Source: Promethearchaeota archaeon (GTDB lineage: Archaea > Asgardarchaeota > Thorarchaeia > Thorarchaeales > Thorarchaeaceae). From it: a stretch of DNA of 6,450 bases. Shown here piece after piece: positions 1-6,450 of the stretch (within the stretch, counting starts at the first letter, position 1; each line of letters begins with the position of its first letter). The notes below the pieces were generated by a model, which saw only the letters and a list, made by a program, of their open reading frames with translations, was not told the origin of the DNA and made no database searches. Both the position numbers and the translations under genes were made by a program. Where the stretch lies: positions 1 to 6,450 of the forward strand of contig JALVPN010000198.1 in the NCBI GenBank assembly GCA_027031765.1, written 5' to 3'.

Positions 1-1
1 A

Positions 2-187
2 ATCAAACAGTGTCCGAACATCAAGATAGTTTCCAAGTACGGTGGTACCATTGTCGTACAGGACAGGGTGCCGGGTCACCCCGACCAAGGTGCCGAGTTC
101 GTCATATCGCTACCAGCGGCCACAGTGCCACCACAGACCCAATCCAATGCCTCACATGCCGCCCACTCAGTAGCACCGGAGGGATAG
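2..187 (+). CDS. C-terminal fragment (5'-truncated by the window) of a sensor histidine kinase / HATPase_c-domain protein
   Basis: Frame +2 is open from base 2 to TAG at 185-187 and reads IKQCPNIKIVSKYGGTIVVQDRVPGHPDQGAEFVISLPAATVPPQTQSNASHAAHSVAPEG*. The stretch 'IV..YGG.I.V.D......G..F.I.LP' matches the end of the HATPase_c fold (final helix, GG turn, two strands, G-x-x-F-x-x-x-LP). It is absent from the ORF track because there is no start codon in the window. Confidence 0.7.
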   Translation: MKQCPNIKIVSKYGGTIVVQDRVPGHPDQGAEFVISLPAATVPPQTQSNASHAAHSVAPEG

Positions 188-463
188 AGAACCCCCGACT
201 GGCCGGCCCGGGCATGTCCATAGCAGCACGGGTACGCCAACAGAACACGGCACACAACAACCTACACTGGACCACGGAGGGGCTGTGCTAGTGAGCAGTA
301 CTGCAGTGCAAGACCCGGCAGTCTACCAGTGGCCCATCCCTAGCTCCGGACAAGCACGAGGTGATGTGGGGTCGGCGTGCTGGCCACCCCAAGGGCATCT
401 GTACCCGTAGCAGAGTGGCTGGACGTATCACAGCCGGGCCACAATGACGGTGACCACTAGCTT

Positions 464-490
464 GGCGTCCGGGCGGTGTGACAGGACGCC
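464..490. other. GC-rich 7-bp inverted repeat in the convergent intergenic gap (possible RNA hairpin or 3'-end structure)
   Basis: GGCGTCC (464-470), 13 nt, GGACGCC (484-490). There is no adjacent U-tract, so it is not called a terminator. Confidence 0.25.
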
Positions 491-573
491 GCCAAAGGGC
501 GCACCCGCCGGCTCAGACATGACCCCAGGCACACTGCTACTGATGGGTCTGCCCCTCACACTACTGTCGTGGC

Positions 574-3510
574 CTAGCCGCCGCGCCGGGCCCTGACAAT
601 CAGTACGACCATGATGACAATCACGACTACCATGCCAATGATGATGAGCCTGAGCACATTCGGGTCGTCGAAGATGTTGATGTTCGTCGTACTCGTGGTC
701 GCAGTTGCAGTCGTCGTATTCGTGTTCGTAGTTGTGGTAGTTGTGGTCGTACCTGTTGTCGTTGTTGTTGAGGTGGTTGTTGTGGGCCCGCCGGCAGTGA
801 CGGTCACGAAGAGCGTATCACTGACGGACGCACCGCACATGGCCCAGACGGTGATGGTGACGTTGTGGGCCCCCATGCTGAGGCCATCGACAGTCACGAT
901 GATTGGGCTACCGTCCCAGTAACCGGATGTCCAGTCCGCCCCGTCGACCGTCACCTCGAACCTGTACGGACACGATGCCGAGGGCGCCCACGTGACATAG
1001 TGGCCTGTGGTCCCGGTGGGATAGGTGATGTCATCGGGATGGTCGATTTCCAGGTCACTCGCGAAGACCCGGGCGTGGTGGTCACGTACAGTCCCGGTAC
1101 TGGGGATCCAGTACGCGCCAAGACCGTGATAGTCATCCCACGCGTTGCCGAGAGTGGTGCTGTTCCAGTTGCTGTACCCCATAAGGTCGTATGCATTTGC
1201 CACCGATGCGCCCGCGAAGCTGTTGCCGAAGACCGTCCAGTCCTGCGTGAAGCCGCCGAGCAGGATACAGATTGACCCGCCGCACACGGTATTGTTAGAG
1301 ACGTCGCAGGCCACAGTGAATGAGCCCTCAATGCCAGGACCGGTCTCGCTGCAGACCTTGTTGCCGGATATCGTCCCGGCACTAGAGCCTATGACAGAGA
1401 TGCCACCGTCATGTGACCGCCAGACCGTGCAGTCGAGGACGACGAAGCTCCCACTGAAGTGGATATTGATACCGTTCGTGCAGTCGCGGACCTCACATCC
1501 GATGACACGTGTCCCCGCCGAGTGGCACGAGAACACACCTGCTGTGCACTCCGTCATCTGTGTGCTGTAGACCGAGCAGGAGTCGCACGCTACAAGGGTG
1601 ACGCCGATACCTGCCTGTTCGAAGGTGCCCCCAACGACGGTCACACCAGTACAGTTTGCAAGGATGACCTGTCCGTACTCGTCGCCCGAGACCACGGAGC
1701 CGGACTGATTCAGGAAATAGCCAAGTGGACGGCCGTTGACCGTGTTGCCGGAAGCGTACATCCGTGCATACAGCGCGTTGGTGGCTCTCAGGTGAACCCC
1801 GCTCCCCGTCATAGTGTTGTGCTGCAGCGTGCAGTCCTGGGATGAATAGATGTGCACTGCTGCATCCCAGGGACCTGACACTTGGTTGTATGACACGTTC
1901 GCCGTGGAAGATGCATATACACTGATACCATAGACCTCAGAGCCAGAGACCGAGTTGTTGAAGACCGTTGATGTAGGCGACATATACAGACGTATGCCGA
2001 ACTGGTCGGCCCCGTCGATGCTACAGTTGGTGATGGTCGAGCTAGCACAGCGGTAGAGGTAGATGCCAGCGACCGTGGCCCCCGTGACCGTCGTGTTCCG
2101 GAGGCGTAGGTTGCCAGAGGTGATTGCGTAGACACCATATGGGACATTCATGAACCGCCCATTGAGCAGCTCGCAGTTCGGCGAGTCCACAATGATCACT
2201 TGGCCCGCGCCTGAGCAGTCTATCCCCACGGGCGGCAAGTCCCGGAGTACCATCAGCTCCTTTCCATTGACCGTGTTGTCGACATTGACAATCTTGTAGT
2301 CGTCCGGACTCGTACTGACAATGCGGAGTCCGCAGCCGTTGAAGGTGTTCCCAGTGAGGTTCCCGCTAGATGAAGACGACAGGTGCGCACCTGCACGAGT
2401 GCAGTCAGTAAGGGTATTCTCTTCCAGGACCACATTGTCAGAAGCTACGGTCAGAATGCCCTCCTCACAGCCCACAGTGCGGCAGCGATAGACATGCGCG
2501 GCCGGACTGTACCATATCTTGACACCACGAGTACAGTCGGTCAGCTCACAGTCCACCACTGTGACGGCAGACGAGTCCGAACACGTGATGCCAGAGTAAC
2601 AACCCACAGCGCTCACCCCACTCGTAGTCACATTGTCACAATGGAGCAGCTGTACGCCGTCTGCGAGTCCTTCGAAAACACCGCCGACGACGCGGGAGTC
2701 ACTACAGTTGACGAGAAGGAGCTGACCATACAGAGAGCCGTCGACGACAATGCCGGTCTGGTTGGCGATGTAGCCGATGGGCTCCCCGCTGACAGTATTG
2801 TTGTCGAACTGGCCAAAGCAGTGCGAGAGCTTCCCATTTATGTCAATGCCACCCGCTGCGAACACATTGTCCGTGATGGTCAAGCCGTCCACGGTGACCA
2901 CCGAAACACTGCCGCCCTGTCCTACAGTAGTGCACTCACGTACCTGTAGGTCCCCACCACTTCTCACGTCAAGGAACATGGCACAGTACTCAGCACGACA
3001 CAGTGAAATGCTGACACCGTGACAGCTGGTGAGGTATGCACCGGTGGAGCAGTTCCGCAGCCGCACATCTGTCAGCCGCAGCGAGTCGCATCCGGACGCA
3101 GCAATACCATACGGCCTACCGATAATCGTACAGTCCTCGACAACACCGTTGTCCGCCGAGGCAAGACGTATCGCTTCTGAGAACGGTTCTCCGGGGCTCT
3201 CGAAGATGCAGGAACGGATCTCAAAGTATACATCCGTCGACCTGATTGAGATGCAAGGGTCGGCCGAAACAAAGTGTAGTCCGGAGATCACGTAGGGGTC
3301 TGCAAAGGTGCCACTGCCAGGCCATCCCTGGTCGGCAAAGTCAGCGTTCGACATTATACGGATGGGTTCATGTGGCACGTAGTCCATCTGTGCGGGTCGC
3401 TCTGCGTGCATGCCACTACCTGTCAGAGTAGCTGGTAGTACGTTCGGCACGACAGACACTGCCAGCAGGACAGCAACAAGGGCAATACATGCAGGCCATT
3501 CTCTCAACAT
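574..3510 (-). CDS. Large type I membrane surface protein, 978 aa: signal peptide, NosD/CASH-type right-handed parallel beta-helix repeats, Ig-like domain (~796-1047), Thr-rich linker (685-783), C-terminal TM helix (595-648) and basic tail
   Basis: Long ORF 574..3639. The start is moved to ATG 3510 (MLREWPACIALVAVLLAVSVV, signal-peptide-like), which has GGAGG 6 nt upstream. N-terminal cap HEPIRIMSNADF..GWPGSGT..DPY; many ~22-aa repeats such as 'GI.l..s.n..i.nN.v'; C-cap GNAWDDY.G.G.Y.I; beta-sandwich PDDITY..G.TG..VTW...VDGLSMGAHNVTITV; TM LIIIGMVVVIVIMVVLIV followed by RARR. TAG at 574-576. Confidence 0.9.
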   Translation of the reverse strand: MLREWPACIALVAVLLAVSVVPNVLPATLTGSGMHAERPAQMDYVPHEPIRIMSNADFADQGWPGSGTFADPYVISGLHFVSADPCISIRSTDVYFEIRSCIFESPGEPFSEAIRLASADNGVVEDCTIIGRPYGIAASGCDSLRLTDVRLRNCSTGAYLTSCHGVSISLCRAEYCAMFLDVRSGGDLQVRECTTVGQGGSVSVVTVDGLTITDNVFAAGGIDINGKLSHCFGQFDNNTVSGEPIGYIANQTGIVVDGSLYGQLLLVNCSDSRVVGGVFEGLADGVQLLHCDNVTTSGVSAVGCYSGITCSDSSAVTVVDCELTDCTRGVKIWYSPAAHVYRCRTVGCEEGILTVASDNVVLEENTLTDCTRAGAHLSSSSSGNLTGNTFNGCGLRIVSTSPDDYKIVNVDNTVNGKELMVLRDLPPVGIDCSGAGQVIIVDSPNCELLNGRFMNVPYGVYAITSGNLRLRNTTVTGATVAGIYLYRCASSTITNCSIDGADQFGIRLYMSPTSTVFNNSVSGSEVYGISVYASSTANVSYNQVSGPWDAAVHIYSSQDCTLQHNTMTGSGVHLRATNALYARMYASGNTVNGRPLGYFLNQSGSVVSGDEYGQVILANCTGVTVVGGTFEQAGIGVTLVACDSCSVYSTQMTECTAGVFSCHSAGTRVIGCEVRDCTNGINIHFSGSFVVLDCTVWRSHDGGISVIGSSAGTISGNKVCSETGPGIEGSFTVACDVSNNTVCGGSICILLGGFTQDWTVFGNSFAGASVANAYDLMGYSNWNSTTLGNAWDDYHGLGAYWIPSTGTVRDHHARVFASDLEIDHPDDITYPTGTTGHYVTWAPSASCPYRFEVTVDGADWTSGYWDGSPIIVTVDGLSMGAHNVTITVWAMCGASVSDTLFVTVTAGGPTTTTSTTTTTGTTTTTTTTNTNTTTATATTSTTNINIFDDPNVLRLIIIGMVVVIVIMVVLIVRARRGG
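685..783 (-). repeat. Low-complexity ACN-codon tract encoding a 33-aa Thr-rich linker (26 Thr)
   Basis: Translates to TTTTSTTTTTGTTTTTTTTNTNTTTATATTSTT. On + it is an imperfect GTN triplet repeat with mixed third positions, so it is a coding repeat rather than a pure microsatellite. Confidence 0.9.
1600..2802 (-). repeat. Three internal protein-level repeats (period 174-177 aa) in the beta-helix protein
   Basis: NTVSGEPIGYIANQTGIVVDGSLYGQLLLVNCSDSRVVGGVF (Asn codon at 2799), NTVNGKELMVLRDLPPVGIDCSGAGQVIIVDSPNCELLNGRF (2277) and NTVNGRPLGYFLNQSGSVVSGDEYGQVILANCTGVTVVGGTF (1746). Spacings are 522 and 531 nt. Confidence 0.85.
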
Positions 3511-3516
3511 TGTTTT

Positions 3517-3521
3517 CCTCC
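3517..3521 (-). promoter_or_regulatory. Shine-Dalgarno-type ribosome-binding site (GGAGG) of the beta-helix gene
   Basis: The minus strand reads caatGGAGGaaaacaATG, giving a 6-nt spacer to ATG 3510. Confidence 0.7.
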
Positions 3522-3659
3522 ATTGCTCAGATTGTACGTGCAGTAGCAGGTACTGGCCCGGCCCACCACAACGAGTGGGGGCCACACCGGTCCCATACCA
3601 CAGGCACGCGGTAGTACGCAGCGGCCCACCACTGCACACACAGCCCTAGTGAGAGGCCG

Positions 3660-3693
3660 CCCACTTGTACAGTGGGTCAGACAGGCGTCTGAC
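3660..3693. promoter_or_regulatory. Two abutting perfect inverted repeats in the divergent intergenic region
   Basis: CCCACT-tgtac-AGTGGG (3660-3676) and GTCAGAC-aggc-GTCTGAC (3676-3693). The sequence is seen directly; the regulatory role is inferred. Confidence 0.3.
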
Positions 3694-3831
3694 ACACCAC
3701 TGAACCCCCGTATGACGACTCACCGAAATAAGCGTTTGCCGTGGTGGAGGCTGGCCACAGGAAGTGAGATGACGGCTGGGCCCGAACCCCCACTGGTGTT
3801 GCACCTGACCGGGACAGCATCTGTGCCTGCG

Positions 3832-3884
3832 GCCCCTGTTGACAGGGCACTGCGACACAGTAATTAGGTGGCGGCAACAGGGGC
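3832..3884 (+). promoter_or_regulatory. Candidate sirtuin promoter: TAATTA (3861-3866) bracketed by a perfect 10-bp inverted repeat
   Basis: GCCCCTGTTG (3832-3841) and CAACAGGGGC (3875-3884) with a 33-nt spacer. The only pure-AT hexamer nearby lies inside the spacer, about 40 nt upstream of ATG 3904, consistent with archaeal TATA spacing and a short leader. Confidence 0.4.
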
Positions 3885-3903
3885 ACATGACCGGGGAAAA
3901 CGC

Positions 3904-4659
3904 ATGCCCGTCACTGACATGGAGACCATCGTGCGTGCAGCAGAGGTCATAGTGAGTGCCAGGCACATGGTGGCACTGACCGGCGCCGGTATCTCTCAGG
4001 AGTCGGATGTGCCGACCTTCCGGGGAAACGATGGCCTGTGGCGGCAGTACGACCCAATGGAACTGGCGACTCCAGAGGCCTTCAAGAGAGACCCGGGCCT
4101 CGTGTGGGAGTGGTACTCGTGGCGGCAGGGCCTCATTGCCAACTGCCGTCCCAACCCAGCACATACCACGCTCGCGCGGTGGGCACGTGACGGACTGCTG
4201 AAAGCACTGATTACTCAGAACGTCGACGGACTCCACGAGCGTGCAGGTTCAGAAGACGTAATCGAGGTACACGGGAACCTGTGGCGGGTGCGCTGTACGG
4301 AGTGTGACTACAGGGCCCACCTGTCAGCCCCTGCGAGCGGCGTCCCGGAGTGCCCCGAGTGTGGTGCACTGTTGAGGCCTGATGTCGTGTGGTTCGGTGA
4401 GGCACTCGACGCGGCCGTTCTGGCGCGGGTCTGGCAGGAGCTGCACCTTGCCGACGCATGCATTGTCATTGGGACATCCGCAGTGGTATACCCGGCGGCA
4501 CAGTTCCCAGCCACTGTGAAGTCCCAAGGTGGTGCGGTCATAGAGGTCAATGTTGAGGAGACCCCACTCACACCCATTGCGGATGTCCACGTACGGGGCA
4601 GGGCTGGAGAGGTGCTGCCGGCCATAGACAGGGCAATTGCAGCACTCCGCGGGCAGTAG
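3904..4659 (+). CDS. cobB: NAD-dependent protein deacylase, Sir2 family class III (CobB/NpdA type), ~251 aa
   Basis: All sirtuin motifs are present: GAGISQES.VPTFRG..GLW, QNVDGLH (4216), catalytic HG (4270), Zn ribbon CTEC (4294) and CPEC (4351), LRPDVVWFGE, GTSAVVYPAA and EVNVE.TP. The start is uncertain (GTG 3868, ATG 3904 or ATG 3919). ATG 3904 gives the typical ~250-aa length and lies downstream of the TAATTA box. TAG at 4657-4659. Confidence 0.95.
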   Translation: MPVTDMETIVRAAEVIVSARHMVALTGAGISQESDVPTFRGNDGLWRQYDPMELATPEAFKRDPGLVWEWYSWRQGLIANCRPNPAHTTLARWARDGLLKALITQNVDGLHERAGSEDVIEVHGNLWRVRCTECDYRAHLSAPASGVPECPECGALLRPDVVWFGEALDAAVLARVWQELHLADACIVIGTSAVVYPAAQFPATVKSQGGAVIEVNVEETPLTPIADVHVRGRAGEVLPAIDRAIAALRGQ

Positions 4660-4749
4660 AGGTGGCTGCAGGAAACGGCGGACATGCCCGTGGTCTGGCT
4701 GCAATTGCGGGACGACAATAGATAGTATAGCGACCAGGAGCGCACACTG

Positions 4750-6450
4750 TCACCTATGGCGGCCAACAGGACCAGCGCCCTGTGCCTCGACCCCTGTAAT
4801 CCCTTTGCCCCTGTTCTGTGACCCGGTTGGCGGTGTGTCGGACAGCCTGAGTATGCTCTGTATGACCCGTCTGGCCACGTAGAGGTACGCTACCAGGGGT
4901 GGCAACAGCACCAGTGGAGAAATGGTGGCTATCGAGTGGTAGACTGGGAACTCAAGCATGCAGGTCCTGTTGCCAGCCGACGACACCATGTCGACACGCA
5001 GGACATGCGTACCTGAGAGCACCGGCATGAACTGGGCAGCAAGGTGATACCAGTCTGGCACCCCCGTCTGCTGTACTACAACGGAGCCGTCAGGGGCGCG
5101 CACTGTGAGCGACACCTCCGTGTCCTCAGGGCCAAAGACATCAACACTCACCTGGAACACCTGGCCCGTCTGAAGACCATCGACACCGACACTGTGGATG
5201 ACAGGTCTACGGGGCACCGAAGATGACACGAGGCGCTCTAGGAAGAGGAGGTTGTCGGCGCCGAGAAGCGCCCCATCGCCCATTGCGATGTCATCAACAA
5301 TGGACGACGAAGACAGTACGACCACGTTGCCCACTGATGGGTCTGTCCGTGCCAGGACCGCACCTGAGGCTGGGGTGTCCGTCAAGACCAGCCCCTTGGC
5401 AGTGGTGTTATCGGTGACCTGGACCAGTGCACCCCAAGCGACATACAGGGCCCGCACCCCATCCGTCAGCTCATCAGGTACGACCGTACCACCGTGGCCC
5501 GTGCCGTACAATTCACCGTGACGCAGGTCGTAGCCAGCGCCAACGCCTGTGCGAGTGAACCGCAGCCCGTATGGTGTCAGCAGGTTGTTGAGGTCACCGG
5601 TCCACCCAGTGTATGCACCCTCATCCGGGGCCCCCGGATACGTGCCCATGACAAGCAGCGTGCCACCACTGGCCACGAAGTCCCTCACGGCATCCCACTC
5701 AGACGCCGTATGGTTCCTGGTCGAAGCGACAATCACCAGTACGTCGACGAGCTGCAGCCAGTCACCACTCATCTCATCCGTGTGGGTCTCCACCACTACA
5801 TTGTCCTCTGCATAGAGCCGGGCCAGTGTGGTCCAGTAGACTGACGGCGTCAGTGGGACACCGTGGCCCATGTCGACCGCAACACGTCCACCAAACGGGT
5901 GCACCAGGAACCCAATCGGGATGCTGAGCATCACACCTGACAGGCCGACCAGGTCTAGTGCTCCAGGGTACGCAGCGTAGTCCTCTGGCCGCGCCCTCGA
6001 CGGGACACAGAACGACACCTCGAAGCCCGAGTAGCCACGGTATACGTCCAGGCGGTCTTCAGAGAGATCGATGTACGGCGACGCATTGCCCCTCACCGAC
6101 AGGGTGACGGCCCCGACGGGTTCTGTCGATATGACCGTCACCTCCTGCGTAAGTGAGGCGCCGTCTGGAGCACACACCCGGTCACCCACCGGCAGCGTGG
6201 GGAGCCTGCATGGTGCTGCCACCACAGTCGGCTGTACGGCACTGCTGACGAGTGCGAGCGACGCTGTCAGGTTCAGGGCCCCTGCACCCTGTTCCATCGG
6301 GTCGGCACCGGTATCATCCGCCCCGGCCATCAGCGCCACCTTGATGTCAAGTGGGGTCGCAGATGGTACGGCTTGGAGGAGGAGCGCCACAGCACCCGCC
6401 ACCTGCGGCGCTGCAGAAGATGTGCCTGAGAAGAGGGTATAGTACTGGCC
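4750..6450 (-). CDS. Membrane-anchored S8 (subtilase) serine peptidase, 5'-truncated (566 C-terminal aa visible): S8 catalytic C-terminus, beta-sandwich, GIFT/DUF4350-like domain, Ig-like domain, TM helix and tail
   Basis: The frame is open from the window edge (6450) and reads GQYYTLFSGTSSAAPQVAGAVALLLQAVPSATPLDIKVALMAGA...EQGAGALNL. GTSSAAP is the subtilase nucleophile motif (Ser codon 6418-6420). The ORF-track GTG start at 6402 lies inside this helix and is not the real start. The alpha/beta domain at ~5221-5886 has RVAVDMGHG, VDVLVI, DFVASGGTLLVMG, LNNLL..YGLRF and GNVVVL. A hydrophobic segment at 4873-4932 is followed by RR. TGA at 4750-4752. Confidence 0.9.
   Translation of the reverse strand, partial: GQYYTLFSGTSSAAPQVAGAVALLLQAVPSATPLDIKVALMAGADDTGADPMEQGAGALNLTASLALVSSAVQPTVVAAPCRLPTLPVGDRVCAPDGASLTQEVTVISTEPVGAVTLSVRGNASPYIDLSEDRLDVYRGYSGFEVSFCVPSRARPEDYAAYPGALDLVGLSGVMLSIPIGFLVHPFGGRVAVDMGHGVPLTPSVYWTTLARLYAEDNVVVETHTDEMSGDWLQLVDVLVIVASTRNHTASEWDAVRDFVASGGTLLVMGTYPGAPDEGAYTGWTGDLNNLLTPYGLRFTRTGVGAGYDLRHGELYGTGHGGTVVPDELTDGVRALYVAWGALVQVTDNTTAKGLVLTDTPASGAVLARTDPSVGNVVVLSSSSIVDDIAMGDGALLGADNLLFLERLVSSSVPRRPVIHSVGVDGLQTGQVFQVSVDVFGPEDTEVSLTVRAPDGSVVVQQTGVPDWYHLAAQFMPVLSGTHVLRVDMVSSAGNRTCMLEFPVYHSIATISPLVLLPPLVAYLYVARRVIQSILRLSDTPPTGSQNRGKGITGVEAQGAGPVGRHR

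Follow-up and report, generated by a model that had tools for sequence, protein, structure and literature searches.

A near-ubiquitous subtilase family of Asgard archaea with a domain layout like that of eukaryotic site-1 protease

Site-1 protease and the nearest described systems

Site-1 protease (S1P, also termed SKI-1 or MBTPS1) is the eukaryotic subtilase that initiates SREBP and ATF6 signalling. It makes the first cut of regulated intramembrane proteolysis, after which site-2 protease (S2P) acts, and it cleaves after RxxL/K-type motifs; its prodomain is N-terminal and inhibitory, and is removed autocatalytically at the A, B and C sites. A gene whose product has a closely similar layout of domains is found at one end of a 6450-base stretch of DNA (the window), which comprises positions 1–6450 of the 9311-base contig C198 in the genome of an Asgard archaeon of the Thorarchaeota (2.95 Mb, 95% complete). 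We consider it about 75% probable that this product is a type-I membrane protein, an apparently active subtilase that is tethered to the cell surface and has an S1P-like layout, and that it belongs to an Asgard-wide family within which the window copy is a rare short paralog.

The solved ectodomain of S1P is made up of a peptidase S8 subdomain, a ‘P-like’ β-sandwich and a GIFT subdomain (residues 617–998); the GIFT subdomain packs onto the loops that bear the oxyanion Asn, and S1P is the sole eukaryotic proprotein convertase to carry one (PMC11231238). S1P (8UW8, 8UWC, 9CSD) and the window protein have in common an S8 domain, a sandwich, a GIFT domain, a single C-terminal transmembrane helix and a short tail, alongside three motifs: one (EQGxG) that follows the catalytic Ser, a second (RVxxDxxH) with which GIFT opens, and a third (GxxVxxxDSxxxDD) in the later part of GIFT. 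The last of these marks GIFT domains generally rather than S1P, since it is also present in IFT52. There are several points on which the two proteins differ. S1P has an autoprocessed A/B prodomain and the window copy has none; the GIFT domain of the window protein is about 230 residues long, whereas that of S1P spans 617–998 (PMC11231238); an extra filamin-like immunoglobulin (Ig) domain stands before the transmembrane helix in the window protein but not in S1P; and S1P is located in the Golgi, whereas the Asgard protein would be placed at the archaeal cell surface. A SPRING-like partner, substrates and coupling to S2P are known for S1P only.

Each single domain of the window protein is nearer to some other solved structure than to S1P. 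Among solved catalytic domains the closest is that of Tk-SP from Thermococcus kodakarensis (3AFG, 9UES), which matches with 157 bits, 36–38% identity and a root-mean-square deviation (rmsd) of 2.4–3.4 Å. Tk-SP has a β-jelly-roll after its S8 domain that partly aligns with the sandwich of the window protein, and a propeptide that is common to the long-type paralogs described below (profile positions 36–458 against Tk-SP 13–417) but is missing from the window copy. It is a secreted protein without a GIFT domain, Ig domain or transmembrane anchor, whereas the window protein has all three, and the combination of propeptide, S8 domain, jelly-roll and secretion that defines the Tk-SP type is not found in the window copy. 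The middle domain has the same GIFT fold as the N-terminal domain of IFT52 (5FMS, 5FMR), and OST48/Wbp1 is matched at Z ~20 over the GIFT domain, the domain that follows it and the transmembrane helix. IFT52 is cytoplasmic and OST48 is a non-catalytic subunit of oligosaccharyltransferase; unlike the window protein, neither of these, nor the GldG/ABC_transp_aux and DUF4350 proteins, has a protease domain.

In a search of the literature, no paper was found that links Asgard archaea with S1P, MBTPS1 or IFT52, and the origin of the S1P body plan was not discussed in the papers searched. A 2026 structural survey of Asgard–eukaryote homologues lists OST48 and makes no mention of S1P, subtilisin, GIFT or proteases. 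A catalytically intact subtilase of the same layout, present almost throughout the Asgard archaea, would add a new candidate to the eukaryotic signature proteins, and the family would offer a tractable prokaryotic model of the control of a subtilase by a GIFT domain. If the link to S1P were merely convergent, the family would still represent a part of the Asgard cell surface that is conserved and has yet to be characterised. What is new here, besides these nearer single-domain relatives, is the short paralog without a propeptide and a phylum-wide count of the family.

Domain layout and catalytic motifs

The gene is carried on the minus strand as a single reading frame that runs from position 6450 down to 4753, with the stop codon at 4750–4752, and that is open at the end of the window; it provides the last 566 residues (the 3′ two-thirds of the gene) of a protein of about 900 residues. 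Domain boundaries were taken from an AlphaFold2 model of the 566 residues, built from an alignment of 22 homologues (pLDDT 84.4, pTM 0.77), and all the features that follow are on the minus strand. The frame opens with the 69-residue C-terminus of the S8 (subtilase) domain (6244–6450), placed by the model and by coordinate mapping, within which lie the catalytic-Ser motif GTSSAAP (6406–6426) and the motif EQGAGALNL (6268–6294). Next comes a β-sandwich of about 110 residues (5896–6231), which is all-β in the model with a pLDDT of ~90 and stands between the S8 and GIFT domains. The GIFT domain (5206–5892) has, according to the model and the fold match, a non-catalytic α/β fold of the class-I glutamine-amidotransferase type, and contains the motifs RVAVDMGHG (5860–5886), FVASGGTLLVMG (5644–5679), LNNLLTPYGLRF (5557–5592) and GNVVVLSSSSIVDD (5290–5331). 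After it, close to the membrane, stands an Ig-like domain of the filamin-repeat type (4936–5205), modelled with seven strands at a pLDDT of ~90, and then a single C-terminal transmembrane helix (ATISPLVLLPPLVAYLYVARR..., 4861–4929), where the hydrophobicity of the C-terminal part peaks and where the model has a helix (residues 512–537). The position of this helix is kept throughout the family alignment. The protein would end in a cytoplasmic tail, some 36 residues long and mildly basic (4753–4860), which is disordered in the model (pLDDT ~30). The original prediction, which had been made from the bases alone and had proposed an Asgard subtilase with the architecture of S1P, gave this same order of S8 end, sandwich, GIFT, Ig, transmembrane helix and tail; its boundaries are within a few codons of those of the model, and the five window motifs that it quoted all lie where it had put them.

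The membrane-proximal Ig-like domain, which had been proposed as an addition to the S1P plan, is indeed present in the model and is without a counterpart in S1P. The family profile matches filamin repeats over this domain (E = 7e-6), and one relative exceeds the Pfam PKD cut-off at the same position (25.6 against 23.5 bits, E = 1.2e-5). The identity of the middle domain as GIFT follows from the fold search, in which it matches the GIFT domain of IFT52: comparison with 5fms_A using VIA gave a Z of 22.8 and an rmsd of 2.8 Å, with 205 of 228 residues aligned. In Pfam the window protein falls just short of the cut-off of each of three GIFT-type families, namely IFT52_GIFT (24.5 bits against 27.2, E = 1.7e-5), ABC_transp_aux (22.8 against 34.7, E = 6e-5) and DUF4350 (21.2 against 30.4, E = 3.7e-4), and the long-type paralog of the same genome lies above that of DUF4350 (37.1 against 30.4 bits). 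The sandwich matched no Pfam family and gave no significant sequence match of its own. It occupies the place taken in S1P by the P-like subdomain and in Tk-SP by the β-jelly-roll, and in alignments it is overlapped by that jelly-roll as well as by the domain that follows S8 in Vpr; the likeness to the P-like subdomain comes from the multidomain alignments.

Directly after the end of the window, the gene is interrupted within its S8 domain by a scaffold gap of 10 Ns (L001:3199–3208, equivalent to positions 6451–6460 of contig C198). Beyond the gap, the same contig carries the core of the S8 domain with the motifs DTGAD (catalytic Asp), HGT (catalytic His) and GNAG (oxyanion Asn), and, at the N-terminus, a signal peptide (MRVLALFMSLSVLVLVMAPVLHS). 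None of the four catalytic motifs is disrupted, the Asp-His-Ser triad has the order of the S8 family, and membership of that family is evident on both sides of the gap: the score against PF00082 (cut-off 21.8 bits) is 37.4 bits for the fragment in the window and 140 bits for the part upstream. The original prediction had expected the full gene to supply a prodomain together with the Asp and His of the triad; the signal peptide and the Asp, His and Asn motifs were recovered, but a prodomain was not. The stretch between the signal peptide and the S8 domain is just some 50 residues long and matches neither Inhibitor_I9 nor any other Pfam family.

Two features of this part of the gene count against an active protease. 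The first is that the window copy has no recognisable propeptide, which in many subtilases is required for folding. The second is that, because the gene is interrupted by the 10-N gap, its continuity rests on the continuous orthologs P0006 and P0009. The product might then be no working protease at all, being either a scaffold or pseudoenzyme or else a chimera of two genes assembled across the Ns, a reading in keeping with the position of the gap inside the S8 domain and with the failure of public contigs to bridge it: the Logan contigs of the source metagenome leave L001:3194–3274, gap included, uncovered. We regard this as very improbable, given that the four catalytic motifs are intact and that both flanks of the gap align in frame to P0006 and P0009, with 51–54% identity on the S8 side. 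By comparison with P0006, about 10 residues of a loop have probably been lost in the gap. The sequencing runs that hold the stretch come down to one hydrothermal-vent metagenome, with no RNA run among those listed.

Likeness to site-1 protease and its possible origins

The window protein has the S1P order of domains (S8, P-like sandwich, GIFT, C-terminal transmembrane helix, short tail), and S1P is the only solved structure to match its S8 domain, sandwich and GIFT domain together. When a family profile running from the catalytic Ser to the C-terminus was compared with the Protein Data Bank (PDB), human S1P was the best match (E = 9.4e-20), ahead of matches to the S8 domain only (1e-15 to 1e-14), and the match took the form of one collinear alignment (7–277 against S1P 416–736) that extends from the end of S8 through the sandwich and the first half of GIFT. 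With a full-length profile, S1P alone of the 60 listed matches reaches past the sandwich into GIFT (147–676 against 198–737), although its score (196 bits) is lower than that of bacterial subtilisins (~210 bits) despite the longer alignment. The same ranking was obtained from structure models, a comparison that the original prediction had called for: in Foldseek, S1P ranked first for the window model (5.8e-16, 501 columns) and again first for the ortholog P0006 modelled at full length (pLDDT 85.9, pTM 0.82; 4.2e-38, 719 columns; next match 2.8e-31). VIA aligned 377 residues of S1P with positions 2–413 of the window model and 583 with the full-length model (Z 41.4, model 38–690 against S1P 196–873). 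Of the two whole-shape matches that rank best in the ESM Atlas, one is a eukaryotic MBTPS1 cluster (template-modelling score, TM-score, 0.49/0.50; 484 residues aligned), and the clusters nearest by language-model features are those of eukaryotic MBTPS1 (0.86 and 0.83), values to be taken as a lead only. The human S1P motifs EQGHGKLDL, RVLWDQYHN, DVDNGLSLVIFS and GRIVLYGDSNCLDD, which the original prediction had quoted, are present in the HMMER alignments to 8UWC/8UW8 and are collinear with the motifs of the window; a fifth that it had quoted, LNELLSVWNMGF, falls outside these alignments.

These multidomain matches count in favour of direct ancestry. According to this explanation, the Asgard ancestor of eukaryotes already had an S8–sandwich–GIFT–transmembrane fusion, which was inherited vertically as S1P, such that the Asgard family would be the ortholog or sister of MBTPS1. 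The common domain order, the single collinear alignment across all three domains, the position of S1P as top structural match in the PDB and the standing of the MBTPS1 clusters in the ESM Atlas all point in this direction, as do the presence of the family in nearly all sampled Asgard genomes and the fact that no bacterial S8–GIFT fusion was found with the queries used (see below). Orthology in the strict sense, as the original prediction had envisaged it, is nonetheless only a tentative proposal, and it is when the domains are taken one by one that it meets difficulty.

Ranked by score, which is no substitute for a phylogeny, the S8 domain on its own stands much nearer to Tk-SP and bacterial subtilisins than to S1P, with Tk-SP far ahead at 157 bits and S1P absent from the 60 best PDB chains. 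A profile without the S8 domain matched IFT52 with an E of 6e-7 and S1P (residues 628–736) with an E of 1.8e-5; these values bear out the assignment of the middle domain to GIFT, and suggest that the domain has no special affinity to S1P over IFT52. As the S8 domain is nearest to Tk-SP and the GIFT domain to IFT52, the resemblance to S1P lies in the layout and not in the single domains. The middle domain had been expected to match profiles of GIFT or of MBTPS1 domains, and whilst the GIFT fold was matched, the Pfam models PF23094 (MBTPS1_3rd) and PF23090 (MBTPS1_4th) were not, neither being hit by the window protein at E up to 1. In relatives, PF23090 reaches 16–22 bits (E = 1.5e-4 to 9e-3), below its cut-off of 27, and PF23094 was never matched; when the host genome was scanned with MBTPS1_4th, only the long-type paralog was touched, again below the cut-off. 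Rigid superposition on S1P is also poor (rmsd 9–10 Å, TM-score 0.41–0.44). The domains appear to be packed differently from those of S1P, because the gain in TM-score over S8-only matches amounts to about one further domain, and their orientation differs between the two proteins. These results count against direct ancestry.

The alternative is a convergent layout, in which a protease with an S8 domain and a sandwich, of the kind represented by Tk-SP, Vpr and cucumisin, acquired a GIFT domain and a transmembrane helix separately in Asgard archaea and in the eukaryotic stem. The resemblance to S1P would in that case stem from building blocks held in common and not from one fused ancestor. An S8 domain followed by a β-domain is widespread: Tk-SP is matched at Z 41.3 over model positions 37–453, and the alignment with Vpr enters the sandwich. 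In Asgard genomes, GIFT/DUF4350 domains are mobile and numerous (several GIFT-only matches in each), and the ESM Atlas holds a cluster from Thermoproteota in which an S49 (SppA-type) peptidase is fused to DUF4350, a second kind of archaeal peptidase–GIFT fusion. That the nearest solved relative of each domain is not S1P also accords with separate assembly. On the other side, convergence needs the same three domains in the same order, together with a C-terminal transmembrane helix, to have come together twice in lineages that are each other's closest relatives, and no other multidomain subtilase reaches the profile and Foldseek scores of S1P. Convergence is also no firmer than a possibility, and its odds are about equal to those of S1P having descended directly from the fused gene.

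Distribution of the family and its short and long paralogs

The closest homologue of the window protein, P0006, is an 851-residue protein with 38% identity from a metagenome-assembled genome (MAG) in GCA_016840845.1. An exhaustive phmmer search of 1.84 billion representatives (E ≤ 1e-3), with the non-S8 part as query, returned 31 proteins, 14 of which have the subtilase Ser motif; the matches with a named source came from Asgardarchaeia, Helarchaeota or Lokiarchaeota. Within the host's taxonomic family, a relative is present in 23 of 24 other genomes. When named genome records were scanned with the long-type alignment, 59 loci were identified, and those with a named taxon all belong to MAGs of Candidatus Thorarchaeota, Promethearchaeota or Hermodarchaeota. 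This distribution, both of near relatives and of more distant named members, identifies the host as one of the Thorarchaeota and bears out the Asgard origin that had been proposed for it. Across the phylum, a sandwich–GIFT–Ig profile (E ≤ 1e-5) found a match in 150 of 151 sampled Asgard genomes and in all 27 families sampled, and many of these matches are full-range and lie within frames of 800–1440 residues. Nine full-range matches were fetched from other Asgard families: all seven that were scanned with Pfam, from seven different families, have an S8 domain upstream of GIFT, and the remaining two have subtilase motifs only. A back-translated scan of genome contigs with the window protein gave no match.

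It had been noted with the original prediction that a fusion widespread in bacteria would speak against a special tie to eukaryotes. No bacterial S8–GIFT fusion was found with the queries used (phmmer, word-indexed and other searches), the word-indexed protein searches, which gave one close homologue and four matches for longer proteins, being too insensitive for bacteria and eukaryotes. An archaeal S8 cluster in the ESM Atlas (839 residues, TM-score 0.52) is annotated with PPC and I9 and not with GIFT; the phylum is known for 5 of its 202 members and is most commonly Methanobacteriota. Similar shapes could therefore exist outside the Asgard archaea.

Elaborated forms are found in other Asgard lineages (L079, L080 and L086 of families f7 and f19; L082 and L083 of families f9 and f15). 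Some carry about 500 extra residues between S8 and GIFT together with a helical tail (...DDFEKIRIIHEKL...) that is conserved at the C-terminus, and in others the transmembrane region is followed by terminal, cytoplasmic zinc ribbons. Thorarchaeota are also represented in the ESM Atlas by a cluster of IFT52_GIFT proteins that stand alone and are about 390 residues long.

The window copy is a short paralog that is both rare and divergent. Its clade in a maximum-likelihood tree, shared only with P0006 and P0009, has 100/100 support and a long stem and lies outside the clade of the long type, and the short type was found in only 2 of 27 sampled genomes of the host's family, namely the host genome and G011. 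The long-type S8–GIFT subtilases of Thorarchaeota (960–1000 residues; e.g. L019, L036, L062) have the same S8–sandwich–GIFT–Ig–transmembrane layout and 29–33% identity to the window copy across its C-terminal 566 residues. They differ in that they have a propeptide that aligns to that of Tk-SP, whereas the window copy is shorter and has none, and in that they have a cytoplasmic C-terminus of the form ...EWE..PPxIE, an end that is missing from the tail of the window copy. This end is near-invariant among loci L019–L075, as ...EWE(L/V)PPP(S/A)IE, and from its sequence the PPxIE terminus looks like a recognition or sorting signal. The host genome has a long-type copy of its own, which is split across the ends of contigs C73 and C219 (L003:4–1200, plus strand, and L002) and ends in ...PPPVIE.

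Proposed function and gene neighbourhoods

A model for the working of the protein can be proposed from its layout. The signal peptide would export the protein, such that the catalytically intact S8 domain, the sandwich, the non-catalytic GIFT domain and the filamin-like Ig stalk would all lie outside the cell, and the C-terminal transmembrane helix would anchor it at the cell surface with the short tail in the cytoplasm. The protease would in this way be held about one Ig domain above the membrane, where it may act as an endoprotease whose substrates, cleaved near the membrane, would be extracellular proteins or the outer portions of membrane proteins. Its possible jobs include the maturation or shedding of envelope proteins, the scavenging of peptides or a first cut of a regulatory kind. 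If the solved structure of S1P is taken as a guide, the GIFT domain may pack beside the catalytic domain and either stabilize it or gate the access of substrates.

The genes nearby do not discriminate between these jobs. Long-type genes (L019–L075) have neighbours that are kept in 33–35 of the 35 loci with full flanks: a convergent gene for a pyridine-nucleotide-disulphide oxidoreductase, beyond which lies a second S8 subtilase gene, and a divergent gene for an uncharacterised protein of about 410 residues. None of these points to a function. The three short-type loci gave no neighbour in common with the window and no functional clue, a point against the surface protease proposed. A site-1-type regulatory protease, making the first extracytoplasmic cut of a membrane regulator that would then be cut by an archaeal S2P (M50), as happens to SREBP and ATF6, is suggested by the analogy with the layout and anchoring of S1P and by the near-universal presence of the family in Asgard archaea. 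Neither an S2P gene nor a candidate membrane-bound substrate adjoins any of the three short-type or 35 long-type loci, and we consider such a role improbable. Similarly unlikely is the fuller proposition that the fused protease was present in the Asgard ancestor of eukaryotes, was inherited as S1P and was already a site-1 protease feeding an archaeal S2P; if true, regulated intramembrane proteolysis of the SREBP/ATF6 type would predate the Golgi.

Other genes surround that of the protease on contig C198. Just upstream of it and on the same strand (L087:1128–2804, minus strand, or positions 7578–9254 of the contig) is a gene for a 558-residue polytopic membrane protein with a soluble C-terminal part, which has no Pfam match at E ≤ 1 and does not adjoin the two orthologous protease genes. 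The window also carries, at 3868–4659 (plus strand), a gene that converges on that of the protease; its product is an NAD-dependent protein deacylase of the Sir2/CobB type (NCBIfam NF001753, 315 bits, cut-off 243; Pfam SIR2, 178 bits). Positions 574–3639 (minus strand) encode a surface protein of 1021 residues with right-handed β-helix repeats (Pfam NosD 192.7 bits, Beta_helix 189.7 bits), after which come a Thr-rich stalk, a C-terminal transmembrane helix and an RARRGG end.

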